The notes under the pieces are model-generated. The model was given only the letters and a program-made list of their open reading frames with translations. It ran no database searches and was not told the DNA's origin. A stretch of DNA of 64,000 nucleotides from Carcharhinus longimanus. Taxonomy: Eukaryota. Made by a program: the position numbers and the translations under genes. The stretch spans positions 67,170,209-67,234,208 of the forward strand of contig JASCQW010000072.1 of the NCBI GenBank assembly GCA_030264375.1, given 5' to 3'. Below, in pieces: positions 15,778 through 49,429 of the stretch; within the stretch, counting starts at the first letter, position 1; each line of letters opens with the position of its first letter.

Positions 15778-15989
15778 GTTTATTACAGAATACATAGTAA
15801 AACCATTACCATGGTGTACACACACTAATCCCTGCCCGGGACAGCTGTTCAGCAGGCCCAGTCCTGGGCCTGACTTATAAAAGGCTCAGGTAATGAATTA
15901 CAGCTGGACAGGCCACTTCCTGATACTAAAGGAACTCAGATTCAACAAGCCCCACAGTGATTCCCCATGGACCTCCTGAGGGTTATCAT
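15778..15989 (-). mobile_element. Solo LTR-like sequence
   Basis: Minus strand begins TGA.., contains TTTTATAA TATA-like box then AATAAA near the end; resembles Gypsy-type LTRs. Confidence 0.5.
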
Positions 15990-16323
15990 GAGGGCAAGAG
16001 TGCCGATTGTATAATAACCATGCATGGCAAACAAGGAAAATGCTATATAATACAAACTAAAGAACATAGCTATCCAAATGCAGAGAACAGTAGAGATCTT
16101 GAGAACAGGGAGAAATATAAAGAACAGCAAAGAAATTCAAAGAAAGTAGTTAAAGCTGCAAGAAGCAATATCAAGAATAATACTCAATGTTTTTACAAGT
16201 AAATTAATAAGAAGTGACTGACTAAAAGGAATATGAACCACTTAACACTCATGGGTGGTACTGTCATTGAAAATCAGGACATGCCACAATTTTTTATTCT
16301 TTCATTGGGCATCGTTGACGAAG

Positions 16324-16561
16324 TAAGAAGTCTAACAACAACAGGTTTATTTGGTAGTAAACACCACTAGCTTTCGGAACGCTGTTCCTTCGTCAGATGT
16401 GTGGGGAGTTCCACTAGCTTTCAGAACAGGTAATGAATTACAGCTGGACAGGCCACTGCCTTATACTAAAGTTTACTACCAAATAAACCTGTTGAACTTT
16501 AACCTGGTGTTGTGAGACTTCTTACTGTATTTACCCCAGTCCAACGCGGGCATCTCCACAT
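16324..16561. mobile_element. Penelope-derived inverted-arm element with hammerhead motif and 14-bp TSD
   Basis: Left arm TAAGAAGTCT..ACAGGTTTATTTGGTAGTAAAC vs right arm GTTTACTACCAAATAAACCTGTT..GAGACTTCTTA plus tail CCCCAGTCCAACGCGGGCATCTCCACA; TSD CATCGTTGACGAAG (16310-16323)/CATCGCTGACAAAG (16562-16575). Confidence 0.8.
16364..16405 (-). ncRNA. Minimal type I hammerhead ribozyme motif
   Basis: Minus strand CCACACAT CTGACGA A GGAAC-AGC-GTTCC GAAA GC TA GTGG: CUGANGA core, 5-bp stem II, GAAA, palindromic stem III, UH site, CCAC/GTGG stem I. Confidence 0.7.
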
Positions 16562-17320
16562 CATCGCTGACAAAGCCAGCATTTATTTATCTTCACTAAT
16601 TCCCTGAGGAGTTGGTGGTGAGCCAATGTCTTAAACTGCTGATGTTAAATAATCTCTTTTGTATAGGTCTTCACACTAAAGGATATGGCAGAGTTCCAGA
16701 GATATGAGGAAAATGAAAATTGAATCAAGTAGAGGAACTTGCTGGATTTAATGTCAGTAAAATATTGGTAAAGGAGAAAATAATGGCGATTGACAAATTC
16801 CCAGGAGCGAATGATTTCCACACCCAAAAATAAGCAAGAAAATTGTAGTTAATTTAGTTGTGATCGCTGGAAATCCTTTTGATTCTGGAATTCCCCTTTT
16901 GGATTAGAAATTGCTAGTGACACTCCATTAGTTAAAAATGGGAGAGAGAAACAGGAAACTATAGGCGTATAACTCTAACATTAGTTCTGGCAAAATCACT
17001 AGAATCTGTTATTAAGAACAGAGTGATGAACACTTAACAGAGAAGGCCAGCATGGGATTGTAAAGCATAAGTCATGTCTAACTAAAGTTGATTTTCTTTT
17101 ATGTGGAAATAAATAACATTGGTATATCAAGGAATGTTACTAATTCAGGCATTCAGTAAGATTCCACACAGATGATGGTTGGCAAAGATAAAGACATTTG
17201 GAATTGAAGGCAACCTATATGACATGGGTATAGAATGAGTCAGAAGATTGGAGACAGGATATACAGTCCATTGGCTAGATGTGCCAATCAATGTCCTCCA
17301 GCAAACTGTACTGGGACACT

Positions 17321-18103
17321 TTGGCCAGAACTCTACCACCTCATCTACCATGGAATTGGAGCGGGTGAGTGCCCAACAACAAAAATTTCTGATGACCTCA
17401 GGCGGGAATTTCCGGTGTCACCTGAGCAAGGCAGTAAAATCCCACCCTACGGGCACAATCTACAATCTTCCCAAACAAATTCTAAGCGTTTGAAAACAGG
17501 AGTTCCACATTGGTTATTTGGACGAGTGCAGAACTGTAATCTTCCTACACTCTGTCAGTTATTTTCACAACTGGGAGCTTTGTGCTGGTGGGGGACAGTA
17601 TTTCCTCCCACTCCACAGCCCATCATCAGCATTGCTATCCCCCTCATGCCACATAAGCCGCTGGCACTGGGACATCAGGACTTCCCAATGAGTCCCCGGC
17701 AGATCCTGGACATGCCCCTAGCCCCCGTCATGATCTCCTCTGTGGCCCACCCTTACACGCACTTCTCCCTTGCACATCCACCCCCTGCATGTCCCCCTTG
17801 CACAACCATGCCCATGGCAGAGCTTCCCCCTTGCATCGGCCTCCCTTTCGTTATGCAAGTGCCACTCCCCGTGTTTTTCCCACTCAGGTCACACCCCCAC
17901 ATAGGCCACGCTCCTTTGGCACTGTCATTGGCACATTTATGGTGCCCAACTGATGGGCACTGCCATGCTCCCGACCACCCGGGGACTTCAATAGCCTCTG
18001 ATACCCTGGCATGGCCATGGCACCTATGCTCCGCTACTGCAGTGCAATCTTCCTGGCTCACCATACCGATCGACCGGTATAGCAAGCTGGTAAGATTGCA
18101 TCC
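17321..18103. mobile_element. Non-autonomous TIR (Harbinger-like) element inserted in CR1
   Basis: GC-rich block with imperfect termini GGCCAGAACTCTACCA / TGGTAAGATTGCATCCC interrupting the CR1 RT; related fragment at ~3167-3295. Confidence 0.55.
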
Positions 18104-18379
18104 CTAATATCTTGGGAATGAAATAATGGAGGACTGTATATCAAAGTTTTATGACGGTATTAAGTTGGTTGGCAGAGTAACTATTATAGGTAGAATGAGA
18201 GAGTTGCAAAGGTATATTAATAAATTGAGAGTGAGAAAAACTGTGGCAGATGGAGTTCAATGTGAGTCATCCAACTTGAACCAAAGAAAGATCTATCAGA
18301 TGTTTTCTAAATGGTAAGTAGGAATTTTGGTGGATCAGAGAAATCTAGTGTTCCATGTACATAAATCACTGAAGTTTGT

Positions 18380-18623
18380 CAGCAGACCATTGTATTCTGT
18401 CCAAAGTCAGATTCTGGGCTTATTGTCCAGTGATGCTTAAGCCTGAGTTGTTTTCTTGCCAGTTTTTGTCAGTATTGTGTTGCCATTGTCTTTTACTCTC
18501 AACGGCAGGGCAAGGTGGCAAGTCCCAAGTCTACCTCAACCAGAACAGGAATTGAATCAACACTGGTACTGTTATTCTGAACTACAAGCTAGCCATTGAG
18601 CCGACTGAGTTAACGAGCTCCCC
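18380..18623 (-). mobile_element. tRNA-derived SINE
   Basis: Minus-strand head GGGGAGCTCGTTAACTCAGTCGG (A box-like) ... GATTCAATTCC (B box-like). Confidence 0.6.
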
Positions 18624-19209
18624 TGTGAATAAGTACAGAAAGTAATTTAAAAAACGACTGGGATATTGGCCTTTAACTCAAGGGGGCTGGAAACAATGAA
18701 TGTATGTTATTCTGTAGCTGTATAATGTTTGGTTAGGTAGCATTTGGAGTATTGTATTCAGATCTGGGCTTTGGATCTCTGGTAACGTCTAGGTAAGCAT
18801 ACATCAGATTTTCACTAGTATTATACCAAGTTTAAAAGGCTTAAATTAGCAGGACAGCTTATAAAAACTTGGCTTGTATTCCTTCCAAGTTTAGAACATT
18901 GAGGAGTGATCTAATATAGATATTTAAAGTGGTTAAGGATATCCATTGCACAGTTCCAGCTATAAAATATTTCCTGTAAGGAAATAGCACATAATCTTAC
19001 AATTAGAGTCATTTACGAGTGAAATCAGATAGCACGTTTTCATACAGATGCCTTTAGAAGGTTGTAAGCACTGGGCCAGTTATATTTTCAAGTCCGATTA
19101 ATTATTTATTGTTCTATGAGAGCATCAGAAGACATGGAGCAATGGCAGGTACAAGGGGCTGAGATGCAGATCAGCCATGATCTGATTGAATGGCAGAACA
19201 AACTCACAA

Positions 19210-20690
19210 CCCTTTCTCTGGTAATTTTAATTGTTTGATGTTCTTCCCTCTCTTTTCACCTGTTGTGTTCTAATTATTTCTGCAATGCTATTTTTGTCTT
19301 CTACAGTGACGATAAACACAAAATATCTATTCAATTCATCTTCCAGTTCCATATTTTCCAGGATTATTTCCCATGACTCACTCACTGGAGGGCCATTTCA
19401 GTTACTCTTTTTTTCTTTCTTTGAACACCTGTAGAAACTCTTATTATCTGTTTTTATATTTATAGCTAGCTTTATCGTATGCTGTAATTTCTCGCTTTTT
19501 TTTTAGGTATTTCATCACTTTTTTTATATTCTGTCCAATCTTCTGACTTACTACTAATGTTGGCAGAATTGTACGCTTTTTCTTTCAATTTGATACTATC
19601 TTTAACTTCTGTTGGTAAACACAAGTAATACTTAGTCTTTCTTTCTCGCTGGAATATATCTGCTGAGTGTTATGAAATGTCTCCTTAAATGTCTTTTTGC
19701 TGCATCTGTGACTACATAACGCTTAACCTAATTTTAGAGTTCACTTTAGCTAACTCTGTCTTCATATGCTTATAATTAGAGTCATAGAATCCCTACAGTA
19801 CAGGAAGAGACTAGTTGGCCCATCAGGTCTGCACCTACACTCCAAAAGAGCATCCCACCCTCTATCCTATTCCTGTGACCCCACGTATTTAAAATGGTTA
19901 ATCCTTCTACACATCTTTGGACTGTGGGAGGAAACTGGAACACTCAGAGGAAGCACATGCTGAGACAAGAGAACGTGCAAACTCCACAAAGACAGTCACC
20001 CAAGGCCGGAATTGACCCCGGGTCCCTGGTGCTATGCTGCTGCAGTACCATCCACATTTAGATTACCTTTATTTAAATTTAAAACACTAATCTTAGTCCC
20101 ACTGCTCTCTCCCTCAAACTGATTGCAAGTCAATTATGTTATAATCACATGCCACCGAGGATGGCTTTTACTGTGAGGCCATTCATTAATCCTATCTCAT
20201 AATATACCAGTTGTAGACTAGCCTGCTCTCTGGTTGGCTCTCGTGCTGCTCTAAGAAATTGTCCTGAGACCTTGAGAGGTATGGACAGAGTAAATAGTGA
20301 GAAGCTATAAACTCATCTTCCAGGCTCCCTTGGTCAATTTGTTTTGTTCAAATCAATATGTAGATTAAAATCATATGTAATTATTGCATCTTTTTCAGGT
20401 CTCCATTATTTCATTCTATATACCCCATTCTACAATGTGACTACTGTTAGTGGGACTAGAAGCCTCTCATACAAGTGACTTCTTGCCTTTGCTATTTCAT
20501 ATCCCTACTCAAACAAATTTTACACCTTGATTTTTAGCACTGTCATTAACAGAGCTACCCCACCACTTTGTTCTTGCTTCTTGTCTTTCGAATTGTCATG
20601 TATCTTTGAATAGTCAGTTACCAGCGTTTGGCATTACAGGGACATGACAATCATATCATGCATATTTGGTTCCATTTGAGCTGATAATCT
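19210..20690 (-). mobile_element. Old CR1 ORF2 5'/central fragments
   Basis: Typical CR1 minus-strand segments (CTACAGTGACGATAAACACAAAATATCTATTCAATTCATC, GTAGATTAAAATC, ACAGAGCTACCCCACC), interrupted by a SINE. Confidence 0.65.
19775..20055 (-). mobile_element. V-SINE (HE1-like)
   Basis: CATAGAATCCCTACAGT tail; CACATCTTTGGACTGTGGGAGGAAACTGG; GGAATTGACCCCGGGTCCCTGG B-box region. Confidence 0.85.
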
Positions 20691-20699
20691 ATCTATTTT

Positions 20700-21305
20700 G
20701 TACAGAACAACAGAATTTTTACAGTGCAGAAGGAGGCCATTCAGCCCATCAAACCTGCTCTGGCTCTCCGAAAGAGCATTCTACTTAGTCCCACTCCTCT
20801 GCCTTATCCCTGTACGTCCTTTCTTTTCAGATAGCAACCCTTTTGAACAACTCAACCAAACCTGCCCCCACCAGCCTCTGAGGAAGTTCATTCCAGATTC
20901 CAACCATAAAACCTTTCCTCACATCACTATTACTCCTTTTGCCAATTACTTTCCATTTGTGTGCTTTGATACTTGATGCTGTCTTGACTGCAAATAGCAT
21001 CTCACTATTTACTCTGTCCATACCTCTCAAGGTCTTGAATACCTCTACAAAGTCACCTCTCACCCTTCTTTTTCTCCAAGTGAAACAGTCTCAGCTGCTC
21101 CAATCTTTCCTCATAATTACAGTTCTTCATCCCTGGAATTATTGTAGTAAGTATCCTCTATTCTTCCAATGCCTTCACATCATTGCTCAAATATGGTATC
21201 CAGAACTGGACACAGAACTCCAGATGAAACCTAACTAGTTTCTTATACAGTTCAACATGTACTCTTGTACTCAGTGCCCTTTTAATGATGCCTAAGATGC
21301 AATAT
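20700..21305 (-). mobile_element. CR1 LINE 3' end
   Basis: ORF 20827-21063 RGDFVEVFKTLRGMDRVNSEMLF...WNELP. Confidence 0.85.
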
Positions 21306-21309
21306 GTGG

Positions 21310-22040
21310 AAAATAAAAGATCATGGTGTATGGGGGAATATATTTGCAGGAATTGAAAATTGGCTAGCTAACAGGAAACAGAGTAGGCATAAATGGGTCT
21401 TTTTCTGTTAGGCAGGATATGATGGGTGGTGTAACAGGGATTAGTGCTGGGACCTCAATCTTGTACAACTGACTGAAGGCATGGTTGCTAAATTTACTGA
21501 CAGTGCAAATATCAATAGGAAAGTAAATAATGAAGAGGATGTAAGGAGGCTGCAGAGCGATATATATATATATGAAGTGAGGGGACAAAAATGTGTTAAA
21601 TGGAATATAATGTGGGCAAATGTGAAATTGTCCGAAGAATAAAAAAGACACATTATCTAAATGACGAGAGGTTGCAGAGCTCTGAGGTGCAGAGGATTTG
21701 GGTGGCTGAGTGCATGAATTGCAAAGAGTTAATATGCAGATACAGCAAGTAATTTGGAAAGCTAATAGAATGTTATAATTTATTGCGATAGGAATTGAAT
21801 GCAAAAATAGGCAGGTAATGATTCAAATATATAGTGCATTGGTGAGACCCCATCTGGAGTATTTTGAATAGCATTAGTCTCCTTATTTAAGGAAAGTTGT
21901 AAATGCGCAGAAGCAGTTCAGTTAAAGGTTACTGGACCAAGACCAGAAATGCGCGCGTTGTCTTATGAAGAAAGATTGGAGAGGTCAAGTTTTTATCCAT
22001 TAGAGTTTAAAAGAGCAAGAAGGGACTTGATCAAAACCAA
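21310..22040 (+). mobile_element. CR1 LINE RT fragment
   Basis: GNIFAGIENWLANRKQ; LVRPHLEYFE*H*SPYLRK remnants. Confidence 0.75.
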
Positions 22041-22077
22041 ATCAAAATCAAAAAAAAAATTCTGAGGTCATTGGCAG

Positions 22078-22506
22078 GGTTTAGTTGGCAATTGTCCAGA
22101 AGGACTAACTTCCCTTGGGCAATTGCGCTGGGTTGGGAACTATCTGACAAAGCAATTTAAATCACTAACTTCAGATGATTCTGTCAGTTTTAACTTCATA
22201 GTTACTCTGAAGGAGTTGAAAGGAAAGGGACACTTCTAACTGCAGAATAAATATTTTAAAGATGTAGACTGAGCCCTGCATGGAACAACCCTCACACCCC
22301 TGACCCTGGCTCAGCCTGTCACTAGACAGCCCCAGTCCAAAACTCCACTCCCTTCGCCTCCCTCAGTCCGGTCCCCACCTCTGCCCATGAAACCCCACCA
22401 GACACCCATCCCTGCCACCACGCGTGCCCAAACCGAACACCCTTCACCCTGGGCCTAGCTCAGCCTGATGATTGCCACTCTGAGGAAGTTATGGGCCAGC
22501 ATTACC
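22078..22506. mobile_element. Dispersed repeat (MITE-like), copy 2
   Basis: Homologous to 1613-2103. Confidence 0.65.
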
Positions 22507-25500
22507 AGTGTCTTTACAGTTTCCACTCTCACTTCCTTTTGTATCCTTGGATGCATCTTATCCAGTCCCAGACTTTTTGATACCTCCTTCTTTTCAATTG
22601 TAAATTCTTTGAGTGTACCTCCTCTCCCACCTCAGACTGCTTCCTTTGGAAAGATAAATGCACAATACTTGTCTAATATCTCTGCTACATCTCCTGTCTC
22701 CGTATGTAAGCCCCCACTCTTTTATCCCTAATCGGCCCTACTCTTTCTTTTATCACCCTTTTATTATTTGTATGCTTTATAGGAGACCTTCAGGTTCTCT
22801 TTTAAATGCTATAAAAATGTTGTGCATATTCATAGCCTTTAGTTCCACCTTTGTACTATTTTTCAAACCACTAGCCTTATCTGCTGGCACAGAATTAAGT
22901 TTGTAAGTTCTGTCCCTTTCTGTCACACTCATTTTGTGAGCCTTGTTCCCTTGTCTTATCCTCTTCCTTAAGTTTATCACATCTTCCCTAATTTAATCCC
23001 TTTTCTCCATTATTTTCTAAACTAAATAGAGAAGGCAAGGGATCAAGTGAAGCAAGATGTGATAAATTAGAGAGAGAGGCCAAGACAGCCAAGAGGAATG
23101 ACAGAATCTCTGCTGAAAAGCTAGTTGTGAAAGCTGCATTTTCTGCCCAGCTTAGTTTACATCAGAAAATGGAGGAAGACTTGTTCATGAAACCTCTGTA
23201 GTTGTACTAATTTTGCTCCCACAGTGGTATGAAGTGGAATATTACAGTTTCTTGCTGGTGATATATGCTTAAGTGAGGATAGTGTGCGAGTTGGATTGGA
23301 ACTTCAACAAGACAGTGTTTCAGCATCCCTCAAATAAAATGCCAGGGCAGTGGACTGCAACCTTACCCCACCCCAACTTACAACCGGCAGTGTAGGAGAA
23401 TCACAAACAGAGCAGGGACTTGGGCAAAACTGGAGACCATTGTGAAAGAATATTGGCTCTTCAGGTCAAAACCCTGAAGGATGGCCATGACAGCACAGAA
23501 ACCAGTTAACAGGAAATTCAGTGCATCACCATCATATATTCCTAGCCATGGTCTCTTCTCTTCACTCATTCTGACATGATTGTTTACTTTGCCTCTGTTG
23601 ATAACTTATTGCTCTGTCTCTACTTCATTCATTCTCTGCGTCATTCACACTACCACCCTCGAACCCTATCCCAACTGCCTTTCTCAGTTTGTGTACCCAA
23701 CCCCTTTTGCTCTATCTTTCTTCTATTTTTCTGTACCTGCTAGGTTCAGTCCCACTATTTTCCTCTCAATCTGCTTCTCTTGCTTAAAATAAACCACAAC
23801 CTCAGTGCACATTTTATTTGATATTAGGTTTCTTTCTTTTATTCATATACAGTAATGCAATCGACCCTTGAAACACTCACACACATGAACTATACATACC
23901 TTAGATTTGATTATAGTTGACTTCTGTTGTCTAGACACTAATGTTTTCCAGCCTTGGGAGAATGCAATTTTGTCAGAGTCTTTATAAAATGGCAATCATA
24001 AAGTTAACCTAATAAAAAGGAAATGAAGGTGATCCACTTAATTCTGTTTACTGTGTTTTCAATTTGGGTGTAGGTGTTACTGTGTATGTGAAATACACAG
24101 GAATGGATTCACCAGGCTGAACTTAGCAGTGCCGTTATGGGAATTAATTTTCCCTGAAGGATAAAAGAATTAAACCAAAGATATTCTGATAGGCAGAAGG
24201 CTGAAGGAAATGGGGAAGGCAAAAATCTGCCTGTGGCTTTACTTCACAGACTAGCAGAGCTGTGCGAATATTGCTCATTTCCACCTTGTTTAAAGGACCT
24301 TTGGCATCCAATTAGTTCTCTGCACAGACATCGCACAGCAGTCAGCGCAAGTCGAGCATAAAGCTGCAAGGTAGAATGAGAGACAAAAACCCAAAGCACT
24401 TTGTTGTTTCTTTCTCAGCATTTCCTGCTGCTGCTTCATATATTCTTATGGCTTGGCCAATCAGCCTGTTGCATTTTACAGAGAAAAACAAAATAAAAGA
24501 TTTTATTCCCTGCTCTGATCCATCCCCTTTGAAAGGAAAGTTTGCAATCTTATGGACACTGTATTCAGTTGTATCATAAAGAAGAAATGTACTTTTCAGT
24601 TTACACTGTTTACATTGTCCAGATACTTAGATAAAGTGCACCCCTTGGTTTAGTGATTTGCCTCCTGCATTTTCCTGACCACATTTCATTCAGGGACAAC
24701 CTGAAGCTGGTTTAGAACCTGGCAGCATGGCTACAATTGTACCTGAGAGTTTCAAGGAAGAATTCAAGATAACAGACCTTGGCAGAGACTAATTGGTGCC
24801 ACTGCAGGCTGTTTAGGTTGAAGATTACAGGCTTCATTCATTTTGACTTCAATTGCCTGGTGGATTAGCTGCATGGTTTAACTTGTGCCTCTTTCTTTGT
24901 GCACCAGGAGCAGGGGAATACACAGTTTCCATAATGACCAGCCAAATTGACTCAATTTTCCTTAATTCTAAAAATTATCATTAATTATTTTGATTACTGA
25001 AGTATGAGACCAGGGAGCATTAACACAGTAAGATATAGATTGAAATATACCTTGTGTAAATAATGTTTTCTCTTCTGCAAGCAATTCAATTGAATGTTGG
25101 CAATTAAGTAATTTTTTTCTTCTACTCCCTTTCCCATTACACTACCTAATTAATTGACCTGATGTGTCTCCTTATTAATGAGAAGGGAGCAGGTTGTAGA
25201 AAAGTTCAGTAACAACTCATTTTCCAGTGCCATTTGGGAACTGAGCTATCAAGAGTTAAGGAGGCAGTACAAAGGAAATCTTCTCTGTAGCTCTTTTTAT
25301 CCTTTGAACCTGTTGAAAACAGAGAGTTTGAAGATACATAAAAGACAAATCATCTGAAGGTGGTGAAACTCAGTTCTGCAGCTCGGTCAACTAAAAGCAC
25401 CAGTGGTTTACCACAGGACTGCTTGCCTCCCATAGCCAATAGGAAGTGGGCTTTACTGAAATGTGTCAGAAAACCTGACTTTTAATTGGAATGAAAGCAG

Positions 25501-33334: not shown

Positions 33335-36300
33335 TGTTACGGAATGCCATGTTGAGTACTGAATGTTCTTATAAAACCTTTTCTCCTGTATAATTGTTCT
33401 ACTGGCTTAAAGTTTATTTATGAATCACAAGTACACTGCAATGAAGTTACTGTGAAAATCCCCTGGCTTTTGTTGAGAGTTCTGAGCATGTGCAGGTTTT
33501 GGAAGCTTTTCAGTCTGCAGAGAGTGTTCTGCAAGCGAGGCCTATTCTACAATTACTGTTGATTAGTTATTGCTGTTTGTAAACTTTGTTATTTTAGTAT
33601 TTAAAGAAGATGGTTCTTTTGACAATGTATTCGACCGCCTTTTATTGTGAATTTAAGTTATCATCTCTTCGGTGATAAGGAGAAAGTGGCAAGGAAAGAA
33701 AACAAAGTTAGTCCAATGTTCAGCATGGCAACATGAGATTGCATACAGTGATTAGCTAGTTTTCATCATCGGCTTATCTGATGGAATTTCGAGTTAGCAG
33801 CACCATTACTATGTTTGGGGCTGTCAATGGGTTTAACAAGAGAAGTGAAAACTGGGCTGAATACGTGGAAAGGGTGAAAAATTTCTTTTTAGCAAATAGA
33901 ATAGAAGATGAGGTGAAGCAATGCTGGATTCTCGTGAGTGTGTGGGGAGGAGACTTATGAGAAATGAGAAATCTGGTCATGCCACAGAAACCAGGGGAAA
34001 TGTCATTTGCAGATTTAGTTGCTCTGCTCCAGAATCACCATAACCTGCAGTTGTTGGGGAAAGCCACAGTGAGTTTTAAGAAGGCTTTGGAAATCTTGCA
34101 GCTCATGGCAATGGCTGCCAGTAATACTATTCAGAAAGCTAATGTTGATGCCCAGGCTGCATCAAATAAAGAAGTAGCAATCAATAAGGTGAAAGTAGTG
34201 GAGTGTTTTAGGTATGGTGAGCCACACTGTGTAAATCATTGCAAATTTATGGATGTTATTTTGTCACTGGTGCAACAAGAAGGGACATTTGGCGAAGAGG
34301 TGCAAGGCCATGAAGAGCAAGGCAAAGGTGAGCAAGAAAATTTAAGTTTGAAGAAGCCTCAATCAGTTACACATCATCTGGACAGCTCAGAGCAGGCAGA
34401 GGAGCAAGCTTACAGCATGTTTAATGTGAATGAGGCACAAGCAGAGCCTATTTTTACTACAGCAGTGGTTGATGGTAAACAAATCAAGATGGAGATGGAC
34501 ACAGGATGTAATTAATTAATGAAGAGACCTACAAGTCAACTTGGGACACTAGCTGAGGGCCGGTCCTCACTCTGGATATACACGGGAGACTGCATACTTT
34601 TGCTTGGGTGTTGGAAATCCGTACTATGTATAATCGTCAAGAAGCAAGGGCACACCTCCTTGTGATCAAAGGGTAGGGGCTGAGTTTTCTAAGGCATGAC
34701 TGGCCCAGCAAAATTCCATTGAACTGGGTCTTGATCAAGCATACAAAGAGGGTGTTGTTAAGAAGTATCCGGATCTGTTCAAGGTTGGATTGGATACATT
34801 GCATAGTATTACCGTGAAATTATATGTAAATCCTCAGGTTACTCTGTGGTTTTTCAAGCACTACAGTGTGCCATTAGAACAAAAGTGGAATAGGAGTGGC
34901 TGCAAAAGCTTGGAATCATTGAGCCTATTTGGTTTTCTTATTGGACAACTCCAATCATTCCTGTCCTTAAAAATTATGGTACAGTCCACACATTTGGTGA
35001 CTACAAACTCACTATTAAACAGGTTTCCAAGTTAGATGCTTATCCATTATTTAGAGTGGAAGATTTGTTTTCAACTCTTGCAAGGAGTCAGAATGTTTTC
35101 AAACTTGGACATGAGCCAGGTATATCAATAACTCTTACTAGAGGAAGACTTGAAGCAGTACGTGACCATCAACGCGCACAAGGAGTTTTTTGATGTATCC
35201 TCCAGTCTAGCGATTTTTCAGAGGACAGTGGACAACCTTTTGCATGACACCTTAATTATAGGGAAGAGCGAAGAAGAGTACCTCAGCAATCTGGATCAAG
35301 GTTTTCAGAGGCAGGACTGCGTCTGAAGAAAAGCAAGTACAAAGTGTAGAGTATCTTGGAAGGGAAAATTGGACCAATTAAGGAAGCTCCAGAGCCCAGG
35401 AATGTGTTCAAGCTCAAGTCATTTTTGGGTTTACTAAATGATTATGGAAAGTTTTTGCCAGACCTGACAACACTGTATCTACTTCTGCACAAAGAAACTA
35501 AATGGAAGTGGGGAGTCAGCACAAAAGAAGGCTTTCAAAGATGTAAAAGTGGTGTTGCAATTGCCTATTCTGCTAGTCCATTTTGACCTAAACAGAGAAC
35601 CTATTCTGTCATGCAAAGCCTCGCCTTCTTGTATGGGAGTGGTACTTTCTCATTTAATGAGAAACAGTCTGGAAAAAACCATCAGTTTTAAATCTAGGAC
35701 ACTGACAAAGGCTTAAAAAAAATGTTCGCAATTGGACAAAGAAGATCTAGCTATTTTTTTTCAATGAAAGATTCCATCCGTACCTCTAGGTTGTTTGTTC
35801 ACCACAAGTCATTGAATTTCTCAGTCGGTCGAAATATATTCTTCCTATGGCATCAGCAAGAATACAATCAGTGCTAGGTACTTACATTGTCAGCTTATCA
35901 TGTACAGAGCAGGGAAAGACCACACAAATGTGGATGCATTGAGTCATCTCTCTTTACTGGATTTGCCATCCAAAATATTGTGTCCTCCTTAGACCATTTT
36001 CTTCATTGGTTGTTCTCAAGTCATGGATAAAATTCATGAGCCACATCCAGCTGCTTCTAGAATTAAAAATCTAGGTAGGTCATATGCTGGTGGCCTAATA
36101 TAGATCTGGGCTTGGAGACCAAACAAGATGAAAACCTGTTGGACAATGTCAAATAAACTAGCGCCACTTCATCCTTGGCAATGGCCTGATTGTCCATGGT
36201 ACAGACTTCATGTGGACTTTGTGGGAAATGTCATGAACTGCATGTTTTTAATTGGCGTAGATGCGCACTCAAAAACGAAATGTCATAAGTAATATTACAG

Positions 36301-39700: not shown

Positions 39701-40825
39701 AAAAACATTAAGGGCTCTTTGATTTACTCTATTGGTGTATTCCCTATGTGCAAGTGGGAGACAGACAAATAGGGAGTCAGAAATACTTAAAAAGAGACAG
39801 ACAAACAGGAAGAGCAAAAGGTAGTTAGAAAGTACCTATTCATACAGATTGATTCTCAGTCAGAGAAAAGACATAAATATACGTCATAGAAAAGGCAGAT
39901 NNNNNNNNNNAATGGATAGATATAATGGAGGATATGGTAAATGTATATATAGGTGCAGACAGAATGAACTTTGGCAGATGTAAAATTTGACACCAATTTA
40001 TATATTTTTGAAAATGAACTCACACTTGAGTTAATGAGCAGAGCTAACGTATGACAGTGAAGATGTTTCATGACCATCTTTGAGAAGAGCCTTCAGGATG
40101 AGTGAGGATGTACTGCAGCAGCTTGTATGCTGCCAGATTGAACAGAAATAGAACAAAAGATCCAAGAGGCCACAGTGCCTTTGCCTGTAAGCAGCACTCT
40201 CACCACTGACAACTATCACCCAATGATTAAAGTATTATGGTTAGAGTAAGCATTCCAGTGTGTTTGATGCCAGAAGTGAGACCGTCAAGCTGATTACTTT
40301 TGTCAGATATAGGTCCCATATTTCCACATAACCATTGAAATATTTATTGAGCATACAGCTATATAAAACACAGCATGAGACTGCTTTCTGTTGTAAAGGA
40401 TGTTATTGAATGGTCACATTTCTCTCAACCAATCAAATCACTTGTGATTACCTGTAACTGTTTGGTACTCTTGTCAAGTCCTAAAGGAATTGGACCAGTG
40501 CCGTTTTTCTCTTTGATGCCTCTTTTATTTCCAGATAGCTTTCAAAACCCTGGATATAACCGGGAATTGAATGAGCAAACCAAGATTAAAGCATCATCAC
40601 GGAGACCCTGGTCATATCCATTCAGCTTAGCTCAAATACACTGGAATGCTCATTCTAACCAAATCATTTTAATCGCTGGATGACAGTTATCGGTGCTGAT
40701 TACAGGCAAAGGGATTTTGACCCCTATAAGAGTTTCACTCTGTTTCTGTTCAATCCTGTCAACATAGTTCAGGCCACTGCACTATATTTAATGAGTGGCT
40801 ATGTTAGATTCTTCATCTCAGGGAC

Positions 40826-41196
40826 AATAGAGGTCTATAAAATAATGAAGGGCATAGATCAGCGAGATAGTCAATATCTTTTCCCAAAGGTAGGGGAGTC
40901 TAAAACTAGAGGGCATAGGTTTAAAGTGAGAGAGGAGAGATACAGAAGGGTCCAGAAGGGCAATTTTTTCACACAGAGGGTGGTGAGTGTCTGGAACAAG
41001 CTGCCAGAGGCAGTAGTAGAGGTGGGTACAAATTGTCTTTAAAAACCATTTAGACAGTTACATGGGTACGATGGGTGTAGAGGATATGGGACAAATGCGG
41101 GCAACTGGGACTAGCTTAGGGGTTTAAACAAAAGGGCAGCACGGACAGGTTGGGCTGTTTCCCTGCTGTAAACCTCTCTGACTGTATGATTCTATG
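40826..41196 (+). mobile_element. CR1 LINE 3' end
   Basis: IEVYKIMKGIDQRDSQYLFPKVGESKTRGHRFK...FFTQRVVSVWNKLP; ACTGTATGATTCTATGA tail. Confidence 0.9.
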
Positions 41197-41635
41197 ACAG
41201 AGAGAGGGGGAGAGAGAGAGAGACTGGGAGAGAACTGGAATGTTCTGTTCACAATGTGCTGGATAGCAGCTTTAAACTCTCTCAGCAACATTTCAATCAT
41301 TACCAGGCCCAGCACTGAACAGTCACTATTCCAGAACCATCCGGAAAGCCAGAGTCAATCCCAACAGTTACAATCAGCTCCTAACCAATCCAATCAATAG
41401 TCTCTGCCCTGTCCCACTCTTCCACTCACCACCTGACCAAATCTCCTCCCTGCTCTCACCCTCCACCTTCCTCCAATTTCCCTCCTGTCTCCCTCACATC
41501 CACCTCCTGTTTCCTCAGCCCCATTCCCGCTGGCCTCCTGATCCAGCTCCCTCTGTGAGCCCTCACTTTAGCCCCGATTGGAAACAGTTCACTCTGGGTG
41601 TTGTCCCTCTCATTGCTTTCTATGGGTCGGCATTC

Positions 41636-41705
41636 CCCCCTCTCCCTGTCCCCTCCTCTCCCTGTCCCCTCCTCTCCCTGTCCCCCCACTCCCTGTCCCC
41701 CCACT
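41636..41705. repeat. C/T-rich minisatellite running into gap
   Basis: CTCCCTGTCCCCTCCT-type units. Confidence 0.8.
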
Positions 41706-42189
41706 NNNNNNNNNNNNNNNNNNNNNNNNNNNNNNNNNNNNNNNNNNNNNNNNNNNNNNNNNNNNNNNNNNNNNNNNNNNNNNNNNNNNNNNNNNNNNNN
41801 NNNNNAAGAGGTAACACACTGTTTAACATCCAAATTACTCTCCACAGAGATACTTACCAGCACCGATCACCCCAGGGAGACAAGGCAGGTCTTACCTTCT
41901 CCAATGGTTCTCACTTAGCACCAATCCCCATGGGAGACAGTGCAGAAACTTCATAACCAGGGCAGATGCTTCATGACAATCCTTACAAAACACATGTGTA
42001 AATATTGCTCTTAGCTTGGATTCAAGCCTGTAAAACTAGTGAATTTTCTCTTCGGCTTTCAAAATTGGTGGACATACCAGATGGAGAACACATGCAAATT
42101 ACTGCAGTGTGTCTCTGGAGTAACATAACTCTTTTCATGAAGGCAGTTATGGGAGTTTAGTGCAGACACACAATTCATTTTTCAATGCA

Positions 42190-42510
42190 TTAACCCATTG
42201 CCATCCATTTAAAGCTTCTCCAGGGACTGAGGGAGTGTGGCACTGTTGGAGATGCCTATTTCAGAAGAGAGGTTAAACTGAGGCCAAATCTTCCTTATTG
42301 GCTGGAAATAAAATGCACCATAGCACTAGAAGAACAAGGGTATTCTTCCTAATATTCATCCCTCAGCATTACTACTTGTGGGAAGTTGCTGCATACAAAT
42401 TGGCTGCTGCATTTCTGAAGTTACAACAGAGACTACATTTTACAAGCACTTCATTGATTGGAAAGTTCCTTGGGATACCCTGTGTCATGAAAGGTGCTAT
42501 AGGACTCTAA
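42190..42510 (+). mobile_element. DeuSINE/SacSINE1-like SINE
   Basis: ACTGAGGGAGTGTGGCACTGTTGGAGATGCC..TTAAACTGAGGCC; CAAATTGGCTGCTGCATTTC; L2-type tail GAAAGGTGCTATA, resuming as CAAGTCTTT at 43849. Confidence 0.75.
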
Positions 42511-43848
42511 GGGCCTGATTTTACTATTTTCATTTTAAGTGCTGAATCTGGGTGCAATTCAGATCTGACTTGGAAATCTGCTTTCAGGAGCTCTCATACG
42601 CACCTAGCTTGAAAAAAACCGCAACGTCCGAATTGCGCTGCAGGCAGGGCTTAGCACACCTGAAACAGTTGGAGCTCTGAACTGCGCATACACACTGAAG
42701 AAAAGAATTTGAAAAAGTGCGCCCGTGTCACATTGTTCCCGGGCCGCAAAAAGCAGATAAAGCGGCCCAGGAATGAAAAGCGGGAGCGATGGCCCCCATA
42801 GACATCACTGTCCCCCTTATCCACCACTCCCCACTCCACCTCTTCCCAGACCGATTGTGACCCCTGCCCCCTTCCCCCACACCAAGCGCCTGCAGAGTAA
42901 CAGTGGACCCCCTTGCTCCCCCACCNNNNNNNNNNNNNNNNNNNNNNNNNNNNNNNNNNNNNNNNNNNNNNNNNNNNNNNNNNNNNNNNNNNNNNNNNNN
43001 NNNNNNNNNNNNNNNNNNNNNNNNNNNNNNNNNNNNNNNNNNNNNNNNNNNNNNNNNNNNNNNNNNNNNNNNNNNNNNNNNNNNNNNNNNNNNNNNNNNN
43101 NNNNNNNNNNNNNNNNNNNNNNNNNNNNNNNNNNNNNNNNNNNNNNNNNNNNNNNNNNNNNNNNNNNNNNNNNNNNNNNNNNNNNNNNNNNNNNNNNNNN
43201 NNNNNNNNNNNNNNNNNNNNNNNNNNNNNNNNNNNNNNNNNNNNNNNNNNNNNNNNNNNNNNNNNNNNNNNNNNNNNNNNNNNNNNNNNNNNNNNNNNNN
43301 NNNNNNNNNNNNNNNNNNNNNNNNNNNNNNNNNNNNNNNNNNNNNNNNNNNNNNNNNNNNNNNNNNNNNNNNNNNNNNNNNNNNNNNNNNNNNNNNNNNN
43401 NNNNNNNNNNNNNNNNNNNNNNCAGACAACGATCAGGCCTCCCTCCTCCCTCATCCCCCTCACCATAGAATGATCTGGCCCACCTCCCTTCCACTCCCCC
43501 ACACCCCCCACCAATCTTAATCAGAGAGTCATTGGAAGTACTGAATCACCTCTTCAGCAGTTGGAGTGCCCAAAATAGAATTTTGCCAAGCATGTCTGTT
43601 TTGCGCCCAACCTGGACACACGAATGCGATGGTAAAGGGGGAAATGCTAATAAAGTTGGGCAGGCAATTCATTAATTCAATTGAAATACATGCAAATGCA
43701 TTTAAATCACCGTTGCACCTGTTTCGGGCACGAATTGGATCGTGGCCATTCCTGGCCTCTGTAACGTGGCCATCTGCATGGACGCGGATTGCGTTAATGG
43801 CCTCACACCCGACTTTACCACATTTTACGCAATGGTAAAATTAGGCCT
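42511..43848. mobile_element. Non-autonomous TIR element (PIF/Harbinger-like) inserted in SINE tail
   Basis: TIRs GGGCCTGATTTTACTATT / AATGGTAAAATTAGGCCT; flanking TAA/CAA fits a 3-bp TSD with one mismatch; internal gap. Confidence 0.75.
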
Positions 43849-44254
43849 CAAGTCTTTATTTCTGCCTCCCTATGATACTGATTATCTATCCTAGACAGAG
43901 TAGCAGCTACATCTGCGCAAAACTAAGAACCCTAAGCAACAGGATCAGACTATACTGAAGAGAATAGACAAGCTCATGTTAAATCATTCAGCAGGAGAGG
44001 TCAGTTTTTCCTGCAGCAAGTGTTATAAGGACACCTTACTTTGCCCAAACTCAATTGCAGCCATTGGGTGGTACTCAAGTAAAGTTTTAGCAAGTAACTC
44101 CAATGGCAGCTTGGCACCACGACTCTTGTTGTTAGAATCATTATGAAATGCAACCTCAATATCTGAACTTGTGAGTGATTTACAGGCACTGTAATATTCA
44201 ATCAGTGTGTCTTTGTTCTCACTCTAACCATGGTAGTATGTAAACTTCTCTGTC

Positions 44255-44412
44255 TCTCTTCCTTTATCTTCTCCTTCAAGACACTCCTTAAAACTTAGAT
44301 CACCTGTCCTAATGTCTCGTTTGATTCGGTGTCAATTTTTACTTGATTTATGCTCTGTGCTTTGGGATGTTTTACTACATTATAGGTGCTTCATAAATGT
44401 AAGTTGTTGTTG
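44255..44412 (+). mobile_element. L2 LINE 3' tail
   Basis: CTCCTTAAAAC...TTGGGATGTTTTACTACATTATAGGTGCTTCATAAATGTAAGTTGTTGTT. Confidence 0.7.
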
Positions 44413-44554
44413 AAGGGGGCTATAAGCCTTACTGCAACTGTAATGAAGGGTTTCCTATGACAGAACATGTATGGAAAGAGATCTTTGTTGACCATAAGCA
44501 GTGTTTGCTGCAACAACTGTAATCCTGTTCCCTGTCAAGATCTGTTTGTAGGCA

Positions 44555-44685
44555 GAAGGAAAATACTGCAGATTCTGGAAGTAAAAGCAGAAAGTGCTGA
44601 AAATACCCAGCAGGTCAGGCAGCATCTGTAGAGAGAGAAACAGAATTAATGTTTTTGATGAGGGATCATAGAACTGTAATGTTGG
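44555..44685. mobile_element. Penelope-derived terminal fragment
   Basis: AAATACTGCAGATTCTGGAA..CAGAAAGTGCTGAAAATACCCAGCAGGTCAGGCAGCATCTGTAGAGAGAGAAACAG; same family as 14918 and 47525. Confidence 0.6.
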
Positions 44686-46524
44686 CCCAAATCTTCTGAT
44701 CAGTGTGGGGACCACTGTGTCCAATGCTGATCAGATAGGAGAGGTAGTCAGGTCGGGTTGGAAGGTAATTGCTGGAGGTCAGGAAGGTTAGCTTCCTGTA
44801 CTGGTATTGGTGCTTGTGGCGGTAAGTTCTACAGTCACCCAGGAGTTAGACTAGGAAATTTTTGTCTAATGCTTCCTAAGTAACTATTTGGGTAAGTAAA
44901 TCAGATTCACCTGAAGCCTGCAACGGAGTCAGTCTGTTTTTGGAGAATCCAGGGGAGGAGGGAAATTGCCCATTGAAACTTCTAGTTGAAACCTCCAAGG
45001 CAATTCCCACAGAAATCAGTGCATCAGAGTTCCATCGGGATCTAATGTGTATCTTGAGCATAGTTTCTGATGACTTGGAGACTGGAAGACCTGGGCTGTT
45101 GTTCAATCTGTTTCTCTCTCCATAAATGTCACCTCACCTGCTGCATATTTGCAGAATTTTCTGTTTTTATTACTGACCCAATTAGTTGGGCAGAATGGCC
45201 TGTTTTTGTGTTGTAATTTCAGTGTTTTTTTAAATGTGTCATACCTAGACTTCTGCAATGGAGAGCTGAAAGAGAGGGTGACTTCCATCCAATCCCCCCA
45301 CTTCAGAATAATGTGGTCTTTTAACAGTGGAATGTAGCATTGTCAAGGTCCTCGACGGCTGTAGAGTTTGAATCAGTGGATCATACGCAAGATGTAGCAA
45401 TTAGATTTCATTATTTTGCTAACAAATGTTATCTTTTTTGAGGTAAGTATCAGAGTCTGAGTTAAAAACAGCCATTATTTTGCCACACCATGCCTAGCGT
45501 TTGTTTGGCCACCACCTCAGAGAGATCTGACTATCCAATTTGGAAAACAGCCACTACTGCACTCTGTGAGACTACTCATTCTGCTTCTAATCCAGGGCCT
45601 CTCCTGACATGACATAGCCTCTAGTAGGAACTCTGCAATGTGTGCAGGGAATCTGCCAGGAACATACCATCAACCTTAGTCAGATCCTCTATAAACTGCA
45701 GAGTTGATCAAACTAAGAGGGTCATGGCTGCCCTCTGAGGTAAAGCAAACGGAATTAAAACAAAGAGAGGTGATTAAAGTTTTGGCGGTTTAAAAATTAC
45801 ATTTCTAATCTCATTCTGAAGATGTTGATTATTTTTACAATGTAATGGAAATGTCAGGAAGATCATTAGCAAGGTAGCAATACTGCTTTAACTTTTCACC
45901 TCTGAAGATTTGTTGTGCTAAATCTTTATTTATCCCATATTTCTAACCAGTTCAAGGTGATTACCTGTGTTTGGTCTCATTCAGTCAGTGTGTAATGCTG
46001 CATCTAGTTCACTGTCAGTGATGAGGATGATGATTTTTGTTAAAGTAAGTAAAAGAATCGCACTTCCAGTGGTTGGTGACTCAGTGAAGAAGAAGTGTTA
46101 TTATATGAATGGAGAGATTAACTTTTTTTTGTGCACAAGAGTGCTGCTGGGATGTGTTATGACCAGAAATAGTGAAGGAAGCAGATTCATGGTTACTTGT
46201 AAAAGGGAAGGGCATAAATACCTGAAAGAAAGTTCAAAGAATTTGGAAAAAATTGCAGGCTAATGGGATTAAACGGAAAGTATCCTTCAGAGGGAGGATA
46301 GGTGCAGGGAACTGGTTTGTGCCCCTGTGCTGCAAAGCTGTATGACCCTCAGACTTTCTGCTGTCGTAGTGTTCCCCTTTCACTACTGACAAAGTTACAG
46401 CTACACATCACCAGAGAGTCTGAGGAAATTTGGAGGCAGTTTCTGAAGCAGTGGTGCTCCCACTTCGGGGCAGTGAACACCACTGTACTGACAAGCCATC
46501 ACTAGCCCCTCTGCTGAGATCTCA

Positions 46525-47070
46525 GTGAGTAGTTGAGCCAGTGAGTAGCTGAACTGTGCAGATCAGAACACTCCCGGTTTCAATCCATGGTCTGTGCTGT
46601 GTTTAACATGTGACACAGGCGGAATGACAGAGATTGGTGGTGGTGAGTGCATTGTGCCCTTTGCCTGGGGAAGATTCACATGAAATTCCTGTTCTTGGTC
46701 TCAATCTAGTGAGTCATACTGGCAAGCAATTCTTTAATCATCATTCTTCGGCATGTGAGCATCAATGGGAAGGCCAACATTATGTGCCTGCCGCAGTTAC
46801 CCATGAGACCTCAGTCATGGGTCACTGTTCTAAATCATTGAAGTCCATGTGGTGGAAATGCTAACACATTGCTGCTTGTTAGGGAGTTCCAGGGTTTTGA
46901 CCCAGTGGGCGTGAAGGCAAGTTAAGGTCAGGGTGAGGAGAGGCTCAGGTTTGGTTGGCTCTCACTGCCTCAGTGAACAGATGCAGAATGGTCACTTGGT
47001 CTTGATGCCCTGAGAATAGCCTGCATCCAAGATACAATAAGAGTCAGTGTCTTCAGGATGGGAACAAAGA
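46525..47070 (+). mobile_element. LF-SINE-like SINE split by a CR1-tail fragment (~46730-46935)
   Basis: GGTTTCAATCCATGGTCTGTGCTG head region; GAATGGTCACTTGG and AAGAGTCAGTGTCTTCAGGA 3' region. Confidence 0.5.
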
Positions 47071-47524
47071 TGAAAAAAGATCATTTATTTTTGAATTAAC
47101 AGCAGGTATAAATGTCATTAAACTGTTTTGGGGAGCCTTTAACCCAATCTTGGAGAATTGGCAAGGATTAACTGCCTTCTGCTGTGTTGCAGCAACTACG
47201 CTGAAGATTCCGCAGTAATTGCTTGCTGTAAATTATACCCATTGCCATGGAGACGGTGTCGTATGCAGTGAGGCGTGAAATGCTTTAGAGCTGAAAATGG
47301 GAAAGATTCATGGTCCTGTCATGTTTTATTTTTTCATGTGTGGCACCTCTGAAAGGCTGATGAAATACCGTATTTTCCTGAATAATTGCAGGTCCTAAAC
47401 CACCTCAATTGGCGTATGTTATTGTAATGAAAAAGTTTTGGTCCAGATGGTGAGAGGTTTCCCCATTGCTCCATGACATTTCTGGCTCTTTAATTGATGG
47501 GCCAACTGACAGTCGATTGCAGTT

Positions 47525-47718
47525 AATAAAAACAGAAAGTTCTAGAAAGCATCAATGAAGAGGGAGAAACGGTCATAGCTCTGAAGAACTATCATATGGA
47601 CTTGAAACATTAACTTTGCTTCTCACCCCACAGGTACTGCCAAATCTCTTGAGATTTTCCAGCATCTTCTGTTTTAATTTCAGATTTCCAGTATCCACAG
47701 TATTTTGGTCTTATTTTA
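47525..47718. mobile_element. Penelope-derived inverted-arm element with degenerate hammerhead
   Basis: Short arm AAAACAGAAAGTTCTAGAAA vs TTTCCAGCATCTTCTGTTTT; CTGAAGA...GAAACATTA core at 47581-47612. Confidence 0.6.
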
Positions 47719-47934
47719 GTTGATTGAGCTTGCTGTGGAATGGGATCTCTCCTTTCTCTCTTGGAAGACAGATGGTTTCAGATACCTGACGCCCTAACAT
47801 ACTTTGTCACAAAGATGCAGTTGAATTCCATGAAGTTTTCAGCAATGAGTGTCTCCTCTCCCTTCCGCCTATCAATGAGCAGCCATAATAACCGTGGAAC
47901 AGGTCTTCGATCACGTCTGTTCTAAGTAATCCAT

Positions 47935-48244
47935 TAAAAAGTCTCACAACACCAGGTTAAAGTCCAACAGGTTTATTTGGTCAGGTAAGTGGGAATTTAC
48001 AGCAAGCAGTTACCTGAGGAATCTTCAGCATAGTTGCTGCAACACAGCAGAAGGCAGTCAATCCTTGCCAATTCTCTAAGAGTGGGTTAAAGGCTCCCAA
48101 AAACAGAACTCCCACTTACCTGATAAAAGAGCAGCACTCCAAAAGTGCTTTTGCTACCCACTAAACCTGTTGGACTGTAACCTGGTGTTGTGAGACTTCT
48201 TACTGTGTTTACCCCAGTCCAACACCGGCATCTCCACATCATGA
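47935..48244. mobile_element. Penelope-derived inverted-arm element with perfect 13-bp TSD
   Basis: Same family as 16324; TSD CTAAGTAATCCAT at 47922-47934 and 48245-48257; arms GTCTCACAACACCAGGTTAAAGTCCAACAGGTTTA / TAAACCTGTTGGACTGTAACCTGGTGTTGTGAGAC; decayed hammerhead CTGATAAAAGAGCAGCACTCCAAAAG at 48120-48145. Confidence 0.85.
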
Positions 48245-49429
48245 CTAAGTAATCCATACCAGACTTGTCTAAATTTCTGAAAGATGGCACTGAATGATCA
48301 TCCTCATCAAATGACATGCAATACAAGCATGAAAAATCTTTTTATTAGTGCAGAGGTTGCTATCCTGTGGTTGAATAAAAGCCCACTTTTGGACAACAAA
48401 TCTGACCCAAACAGTGGTGGGATTTAGGTGTGCCTGGTTCAGTACTCATATTTAACTTTAAATTTATTTATTATTATCGCAATTAGGCTTATTTTATGAG
48501 CAAAATATTGATAAAAATATTCCAGTAGATGAGGACTGTCCTATCGACTTGTAGACTTTCGTCCTATTATTCTGGACTGAGCGTGCAATGTTAGTAACCC
48601 ACTGTGCCACCCAGATTACACTGATACTTTCTTGTTCTCAATGTGTGTTACAAGACATATAAATTGTAGCTGTATTGTACCTATAAGGTCCTTTAAGTAA
48701 TCTCACAGATGACATTAAAAGGGACTCTGAGTTCAGTTGACATGTATATCTTAAGCCAACCATATTTCACAAGTTACAGCACACAAGCTTATAATTTCAC
48801 AGCATCATGGATATTTTTGCAGCCCATGAGGTGACGACACTCCTCTCGAATATAAATGAGATCCCATGTTGTTAAATGAAGATGAATTGTGGACTTATTT
48901 AAACCTCAGCCTCTCTGTGCCCAGAAAATAAATAAACCATCCAAAGATAGAGCTACATCTTTTCTCACGTACCCAATTAGACCACTACTGATCATCCCTG
49001 GGCATGTTCCCCACCAATATTGTTGATTACCAACATATGTACGTGTCTGGAAAAACAATCACCAAACACGCACAAATGCCAGAAACAATTAATGTGCCTC
49101 ACCAAGCTATTAAGTAATGTCATTATCTAATCAGGGTGGCATTGACATAGGCAGTCCTTGTCAGAAACAACAGGATATTATTGGCATGCCTTTGTGTACA
49201 TGTGTTGGAAGCAAATTCGTTATAGAAAATTAGAAACATACCTAGCTTAAAATATAGTACATTAATGATTGCAGAGACTTAGCAATAAACTGGTTATGAA
49301 TGTGTGTTAAGTAGTTCAATCTTTGGGATCTACAAAGGTAAGGGAAATAGAGAAAGAGAAAGGGATACCAATACTGATAAAATGCCCCCTACAGTAAAAC
49401 AAAAAATTATAATATGAATGATCAGGAAG

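Follow-up and report, generated by a model that had tools for sequence, protein, structure and literature searches.

How do three stretches of DNA in one 64,000-nucleotide window of the Carcharhinus longimanus genome come to be near-identical to sequence less than 1 kb away, and does a mobile element or its host copy them? A preliminary description of the window, by which we mean the whole stretch analysed, had placed short copies of local DNA at 16427, 20267 and 47994, and we found all three there with local donors. Patch 1 is direct (16427-16471 versus 15887-15931; 43/45 positions identical, gap 496 bp, start-to-start distance 540 bp); patch 2 (20267-20308 versus 20994-21035; 41/42 identical, gap 686 bp, start-to-start 727 bp) and patch 3 (47994-48106 versus 47123-47234; 105/113 columns identical, gap 760 bp, start-to-start 871 bp) are inverted. 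Patches 1 and 3 lie at the centre of head-to-head insertions of a Penelope-like element (PLE), each within one 13-14 bp target-site duplication (TSD), and both window copies of the PLE family bear a patch (2/2), as had been described. The features are as follows.

15887..15931, + strand: donor of patch 1, within an old dispersed repeat
16310..16323, + strand: left TSD copy of PLE insertion 1, 14 bp, 12/14 alike to the right copy
16324..16411, - strand: inverted tail-less PLE arm of insertion 1, 3' end leftward, with a hammerhead-like core
16412..16426, - strand: short re-copy of the left arm of insertion 1 (16364-16380 versus 16410-16426, 16/17 alike)
16427..16471, + strand: patch 1, 45 bp copied in direct orientation from 15887-15931, centre of inverted insertion 1
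16472..16564, + strand: forward PLE arm with tail, insertion 1
16562..16575, + strand: right TSD copy of PLE insertion 1
20267..20308, - strand: patch 2, 42-bp inverted copy, in place of ~12-15 bp within an old LINE fragment
20994..21035, + strand: patch 2 donor, lying in a LINE fragment (repeat 20697-21298)
47123..47234, + strand: donor of patch 3, single-copy DNA
47922..47934, + strand: left TSD copy of PLE insertion 2, 13 bp, 13/13 alike
47935..47993, - strand: inverted tail-less PLE arm of insertion 2, internally deleted at 47981/47982 when compared with family copies
47994..48106, - strand: patch 3, 113 bp copied in inverted orientation from 47123-47234, centre of inverted insertion 2
48107..48244, + strand: forward PLE arm of insertion 2, with hammerhead-like core and tail
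48245..48257, + strand: right TSD copy of PLE insertion 2

All three patches are true copies of nearby DNA, locally templated: the best match of each is its nearby donor. Across the entire genome, the donor at 47123 matches twice, at its own position and at patch 3. The donor at 15887 belongs to a dispersed family with copies ~85% alike and the donor at 20994 to a LINE family, and a chance match within these families is ruled out for patches 1 and 2 by private variants common to donor and patch. Patch 1 has the donor's letter at 6/7 positions where the donor differs from 12 family copies, and patch 2 at 5/6 positions where its donor differs from 11. For patch 3, an assembly artefact is ruled out by an independent sequencing run (X1), in which a single 235-base contig spans 47982-48112, across the patch, with the donor on a separate contig; for patches 1 and 2 an artefact is unlikely because the copies differ and no gap lies between them. 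The pairs are not chance: no pair of at least 35 bp and at least 88% identity appeared in any of the shuffled control windows (10/10 with 0 pairs). With 0.48-0.60 pairs expected from the rate outside, the count of three for this window is only mildly raised (P(>=3) 0.013-0.023, uncorrected for window choice).

Two features place the host elements among PLEs. Inverted, 5'-truncated copies with a tail at one end occur, and a GIY-YIG domain at the C terminus, as in EN+ members, lies upstream of the 3' end: longer copies with the same 3' end encode in translation a VYLI..YIGET stretch, and a GIY-YIG cluster was the best match in the ESM Atlas (score 0.96; PF01541 on 41% of its members). Pfam returned 0 families for 74- and 100-aa pieces of the frame, and neither the telomerase-related RT core nor a full-length frame was recovered, the three longest frames running into assembly gaps, so that the placement stops short of a clade (Poseidon, Neptune). 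A CTGA-GA..GAAA-type core, putatively the hammerhead-type motif of the pseudo-LTR, is present in 11/13 library copies. Rfam returned 0 matches for the window, and the fold, computed on a piece that excluded the hammerhead-like core, was not significant. Described PLEs are alike in having a head-to-head truncated copy, a tail of 30-40 bp confined to one end, a hammerhead-like core and, in longer copies, a C-terminal GIY-YIG, and the available text of both descriptions makes no mention of TSDs around inverted pairs or of locally copied DNA at the joint (PMC8557442, PMC11167929).

The tail is confined to one arm in 113/126 inverted insertions, and a TSD of at least 8 bp surrounds 83/126 inverted loci versus 10/290 mismatched-flank controls. 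At 74/103 gap-free loci the two arms either overlap or come within 9 bp of each other. The arms diverge from each other by a median of 12% (IQR 9-14, n=80). The one-sided tail and the TSD fit priming from both ends of the break. A PLE protein has been reported to cut and extend both strands from two start sites (PMC11167929). Completion of integration and formation of the inverted pair are given as still-open questions in the available text (PMC8557442; PMC11167929); TSDs around inverted pairs and a one-sided tail constitute a countable, genome-scale argument for two-ended priming. Some central spacers (L323, L296, B43 81992) derive from distant parts of the element itself, and five others (L037, 76 bp, searched 5 kb each side; L349, L363, L346, L200) yielded no source.

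The preliminary description had gone further, proposing a recurrent capture system in which every insertion is a cassette recording its neighbourhood from 0.5-0.9 kb away. Outside the window, a local patch was present at 0/101 other gap-free inverted PLE insertions and at 1/115 single 5' junctions (L195), or 1/216 pooled 5'-side junctions (95% interval 0.01-2.6%), in a scan counted without an 85% identity filter, with 93/103 planted patches detected. The cassette claim is thereby refuted for the family as a whole. None of the 58 copies most similar to the window's two elements carried a patch. The controls were 445 PLE 3' junctions and unselected blocks; matches at the 3' junctions were tandem arrays, one gap-adjacent pair, or pairs of 74-84% identity (L329, B43 138472) not demonstrated to lie within a TSD. 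A TSD-anchored scan of single copies (17 with adjacent TSDs, 18 with extra sequence, 98 with none, 80 skipped) gave no further nameable local donor, the extra sequence in the 18 being mostly a second arm or chance. A tandem unit containing a PLE (L173) was set aside, as were tandem, repeat-family or gap-adjacent matches at L019, L330, L343 and L213.

Similar pairs also occur away from PLE junctions, at 8-10 per Mb with donors 0.4-3.1 kb distant, so the donor reach is not fixed at the range first proposed; several sit inside old LINE-like repeats. This rate may be overestimated, since some inverted pairs may be rare DNA-transposon terminal repeats; the many artefact-like direct pairs of 30-100 bp flanking 100-N gaps were removed before counting. 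Across 1.02 Mb outside the window, 10 mutual-best pairs lay within 5 kb versus 2 at 5-50 kb, and none of the background pairs in these blocks was at a PLE 5' junction. At PLE junctions, one patch was seen versus an estimated ~0.06-0.13 expected, a possible enrichment that rests on one unselected case. Local patches are thus rare in the PLE family and also found away from it. A recurrent capture system does not survive these counts (1/216 junctions, 8-10 similar pairs per Mb elsewhere), and the proposed link to PLEs holds in part: PLE 3' ends host the patches at 16427 and 47994, but for patch 2 (20267..20308) neither a nearby PLE nor a surrounding TSD was seen.

The one unselected case, L195, is a non-inverted PLE whose directly oriented patch fills exactly the interval between the TSD and the 5' end of the element. 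Neither this patch nor its donor has any other match in the genome; the two differ at ~12/113 positions plus indels, and the joints show microhomology of AAG on the TSD side and TGATG on the element side. As this patch lies inside the TSD, patch and insertion can at times form together. By contrast, a 70-bp patch within a PLE body outside the window (B72 37280) is 69/70 alike to its donor and therefore younger than its host, so later addition is possible, which counts against a one-event origin.

We consider it reasonably probable (about 0.62) that the patches are nearby DNA copied by host microhomology-mediated end joining at breaks, two of these breaks likely being the PLE insertion itself. 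The GIY-YIG endonuclease would make a staggered cut, and both 3' ends would serve as primers for reverse transcription, each at its own member of the pair of start sites bounding the tail, leaving two non-complementary cDNA ends that are usually joined directly via microhomology. In ~0.5% of insertions (at most ~2.6%), the break would be left open and its flank resected, allowing a free 3' end to anneal 0.4-0.9 kb away on the exposed strand and copy 45-125 nt before release and joining. Annealing in cis would produce the inverted patch 3, and annealing in trans the direct patches 1 and L195; this geometry is no test of the model, because a cis or a trans scheme can be drawn for any side and orientation. 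For patch 2, this host reaction would have acted in an old LINE, where an unrelated break had arisen. The enzyme would most likely be polymerase theta.

Formation in a single event at the PLE break is supported by the placement of the TSD: in both window insertions a single TSD surrounds the two arms together with the patch, and in L195 it likewise surrounds the patch. Set beside the arm-arm median, the patch-donor differences (2/45 for patch 1, 8/113 for patch 3, and those of L195) give ages that fit one event. Patch 3 also retains out-group donor letters since lost from the present-day donor, and the outer junctions of its PLE are present in sequencing runs from three other organisms (X18, X9, X14), which together support one event. 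No contig for patch 3 was obtained from those runs, where contigs cannot prove absence; this would fit a later origin, but the shared old letters argue the opposite. The template is DNA near the break, as in templated insertions, and similar pairs elsewhere without a PLE support a host reaction. Of the two agents first suggested, host end-joining fits best. Joint microhomology is 3-5 nt for patch 3 and L195, in part read from family sequence (at patch 3, AACAG common to family sequence on the right, and on the left 1 nt, which becomes 4 nt if a family variant is read). The 0-1 nt of direct microhomology at patches 1 and 2 counts against end joining, as do patches of 42-125 nt drawn from 0.4-0.9 kb when polymerase theta insertions have a median of 7 bp.

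Other explanations share some of this evidence. The PLE reverse transcriptase might jump from its own RNA to exposed local DNA or a nascent transcript and back, which we regard as unlikely. The spacers from distant parts of the element indicate template switching at the joint, patch 1 adjoins a re-copy of its own arm that appears to be a second template switch, and R2 has been reported to show U6 template jumps or ligation (PMC11371274). In 3/3 PLE cases the donor also lies opposite the tailed end, but this bias has n=3; the same patches occur without a PLE (patch 2 and the background pairs), and the window yielded no host gene, with a Pfam match in 1/95 of its longest non-repeat frames (LTR-type RNase H), though short exons would escape. 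It is somewhat less likely still that the patches inside the PLEs were added after insertion, when an inverted repeat able to form a hairpin or cruciform broke centrally and nearby DNA served for its repair. Each window insertion is an inverted repeat, one with an internal deletion in an arm, and the younger patch at B72 37280 and the missing patch 3 contigs in the three other organisms agree with such a sequence of events. However, L195 is non-inverted with its patch fitted exactly between TSD and 5' end, none of the 101 other inverted loci carries a patch, and patch 3 keeps old donor letters. A dedicated system by which each family insertion takes a cassette from 0.5-0.9 kb is highly improbable: despite the 2/2 window copies, a scan able to detect most planted patches found one at the other 216 junctions, and at a 0.5% rate ~10 genome windows of this size would hold two cases by chance. 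Dedicated capture is refuted for the family overall, and a rare high-rate sub-family is excluded among the 58 closest copies only.

The patches are likely ordinary break-repair scars of a known class, not a new system. We found no published case of locally copied patches for PLEs; comparable ones have been reported for L1 and R2, as described in the available parts of the sources cited here. In L1, resection can be followed by a local inversion, or by an inverted duplication, at the insertion (10.1101/2024.12.14.628481); such insertions, together with L1 twin priming, are alike in the retrotransposon break, resection, 2-14 bp of self-annealing homology and retained TSD, and in using local DNA up to ~0.9 kb away, mostly on the reciprocal end. 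L1 differs in that the events come from human cells and tumours and begin at the break end, whereas here a 45-125 bp patch sits between two cDNA arms that both have a near-complete 3' end. R2 cDNA can snap back onto nearby rDNA: in PRINT, further DNA-templated synthesis starts from the cDNA 3' end, on cDNA or, more rarely, nearby target DNA, ahead of 5' joint formation, but that system is engineered, site-specific and single-primed (PMC11371274). Polymerase theta templating in cis gives inverted and in trans direct copies, and patch 2 is alike in its small deletion and, at 0-1 nt, in microhomology, but the insertions of polymerase theta are a few bases long, median 7 bp (PMC4912351). Class 2 templated sequence insertions differ in that TSIP donors are distant and those here local (PMC5110952).

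Rare patches imply that a break can remain open over several hundred bases, a caution for developers of PLE proteins for gene insertion. The unselected blocks held 74 PLE loci per 1.085 Mb, 25/74 of them inverted, which scales to a genome total of roughly 180,000 copies. One might tentatively, and with considerable doubt, picture hundreds of TSD-enclosed patches among these copies as a fossil record of the extent of break opening and of the completion of PLE integration, left by two-ended priming from different start sites with the PLE RT occasionally jumping onto the exposed flank on the tail-less side.

Self-alignment of the window recovered three patch/donor pairs at the places where the preliminary description had put them:

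16427-16471: patch 1, donor at 15887-15931
20267-20308: patch 2, donor at 20994-21035
47994-48106: patch 3, donor at 47123-47234

Local alignment of patches 1, 2, and 3 to these donors gave identity at 43/45, 41/42, and 105/113 columns, and none of the 10 shuffled windows examined contained a comparable pair. Across the 2.68-Gb genome the donor of patch 3 matches only itself and the patch. The donors of patches 1 and 2 are members of repeat families, from whose other copies the patches differ by 5-11 places; patch 1 carries six of seven positions specific to its local donor (compared with 12 other family copies) and patch 2 five of six (compared with 11). A read check, made for patch 3 alone, found one contig spanning the whole patch and a second over its donor in an independent sequencing run (X1).

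Patches 1 and 3 are embedded in the 3' end of a very abundant Penelope-like retrotransposon (PLE), present at 74 loci per 1.085 Mb of unselected sequence and represented by 12,914 exact genome matches to one 34-mer. Translations of longer copies contain a GIY-YIG-type stretch (Atlas score 0.96), for which a Pfam search returned no match. Full-length copies run into assembly gaps, so no reverse transcriptase was recovered and we leave the PLE clade unnamed; the element has a candidate hammerhead-like core. Head-to-head pairs (e.g. L033, L216, and L203) make up 126 of 339 PLE loci from unselected blocks and searches combined, but because some search loci were picked for tail-less arms, the unselected inverted fraction is that of the blocks alone (25/74). 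A 25-44 bp tail occurs on a single arm in 113 of the 126, and a target-site duplication (TSD) of 8-18 bp was found at 83/126 versus 10/290 mismatched controls. Inverted copies, and a tail confined to one side, have been described for PLEs before (PMC8557442); the PLE protein of an anole cleaves and extends both strands, with two start sites bounding the tail (PMC11167929). We infer that each inverted pair arose in a single insertion, with priming at the two ends of one staggered break, and one-tailed pairs within one TSD are a genome-scale sign of such two-ended priming at two start sites. In the window, a 14-bp TSD with two differences encloses the arms and patch 1 (insertion 1), and a 13/13 TSD encloses the arms and patch 3 (insertion 2).

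Local patches are rare at PLE junctions. After removal of 23 inverted loci for gaps, 103 were usable, with at least 900 bp of readable flank on both sides at 69 and on one side at 95; only two had a local donor, at strict and loose thresholds alike, and both are the window insertions. Planted patches were detected in 93/103 trials; the donor search extended past 1.5 kb for the blocks and locus L037. The 5' joint could be read in 115 of 213 single PLE copies, and one of these 115, L195 (L195:1183-1606; contig C146 near 12849300), carried a local patch: a 125-bp direct copy of a donor ~850 bp upstream, filling the interval between the end of a 14-bp TSD and the element's 5' end, with microhomology of AAG and TGATG and no other genome match for patch or donor. 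L195 is the clearest case of patch and insertion arising together. The rate outside the window is therefore 1/216 PLE junctions (0.01-2.6%), and at 0.5% chance alone would give ~10 window-sized stretches with two cases. The copies are real and local, but the proposal of a recurrent short-range capture system with donors 0.5-0.9 kb away over-read them; the patches are likely rare repair scars, at times linked to PLE insertion.

The remaining central spacers derive mostly from other parts of the PLE itself. Central spacers and one 5' region (L323:1147-1451, L296:1686-1770, L041:843-1482) come from far-upstream parts of the PLE frame, reflecting either template jumps from one part of the element to another or derivatives with internal deletions. 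At the joint of one inverted pair (L037:1378-1453) stands a spacer of 76 bp that is foreign to the element, and a search of 5 kb to either side of it found no donor. L173 (1377-1870) was excluded from the count as a tandem unit; its ~180-bp units each contain a tail-less PLE end and a hammerhead-like core, a retrozyme-like arrangement.

As a measure of background, 118 candidate pairs in the blocks reduced to 15 mutual-best pairs, nine at 0.25-1.5 kb, four at 1.5-5 kb, and two at 5-50 kb. Of the 13 short-range pairs, ten fall outside the window. Two of the ten are tandem or of low complexity, and some of those in inverted orientation could be transposon ends; none of the ten adjoins a PLE 5' joint, and several are embedded in old LINE-like repeats. 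Patch 2 belongs to this background class: related copies of its host LINE, which we take to be CR1, continue straight through the site with ~12-15 bp in the patch's place. One of the ten, a 70-bp patch in a PLE body upstream of the window (contig C72, ~67107488-67107557), matches a donor 3.1 kb away at 69/70 positions and replaced ~17 bp; it is a young repair scar, younger than its host. One site on contig C132 (~70065694-70066928), with no PLE nearby, combines three local pairs in direct and inverted orientation and constitutes a multi-switch templated insertion. Three events in one window are a mild excess (P 0.013-0.023), which the way the window was selected explains.

The local origin, position, TSDs, and rarity of the patches are matters of observation; as to their source, we favor host end joining (probability roughly 0.6), because identical scars arise without a PLE and because L1 (10.1101/2024.12.14.628481) and R2 (PMC11371274) exhibit related copying of local DNA. 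A staggered cut at the target would be primed from both break ends, the flanks resected, and a free 3' end annealed, in cis for patch 3 and in trans for patch 1 and L195, before short synthesis and joining; both modes are described for Pol theta (PMC4912351). Template jumping by the PLE's own enzyme is an unlikely source. The donor lies opposite the tailed end in 3/3 PLE cases, but three cases prove little. Our search, at abstract level and mostly of open literature, found no paper describing PLE insertions with patches copied from nearby DNA; supplements of the L1 preprint and PLE papers could hold cases.

Later repair of the inverted repeat we consider quite improbable. Patch-donor divergence (4% for patch 1, 7% for patch 3, ~11% for L195) is at or under the arm-arm median of 12%. 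Runs from three other organisms (X18, X9, and X14) contain the outer junctions of insertion 2. Patch 3 retains a base otherwise surviving only in the X14 donor, and in X1 it has a letter common to the X9 and X14 donors; it was therefore copied before those donor changes. That no patch 3 contig was obtained from X18, X9, or X14 counts against early copying, although contigs cannot show absence.

Runs X9 and X14 carry a further 24 bases at 47789-47790 that are missing from the window and from X18; this deletion arose in the lineage of the window and is useful for ordering relatives. Three old inverted pairs in the window (40126-40766, 44582-45169, and 59262-59774; 63-144 bp, 72-79% alike, 0.4-0.5 kb apart) may be the terminal repeats of DNA transposons that have since decayed, or patches of an older date. 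A piece of an LTR retroelement lies at 35468-35713 on the plus strand, where PF17919 (E 2e-11) matches the RNase H-like domain of an LTR-type reverse transcriptase.
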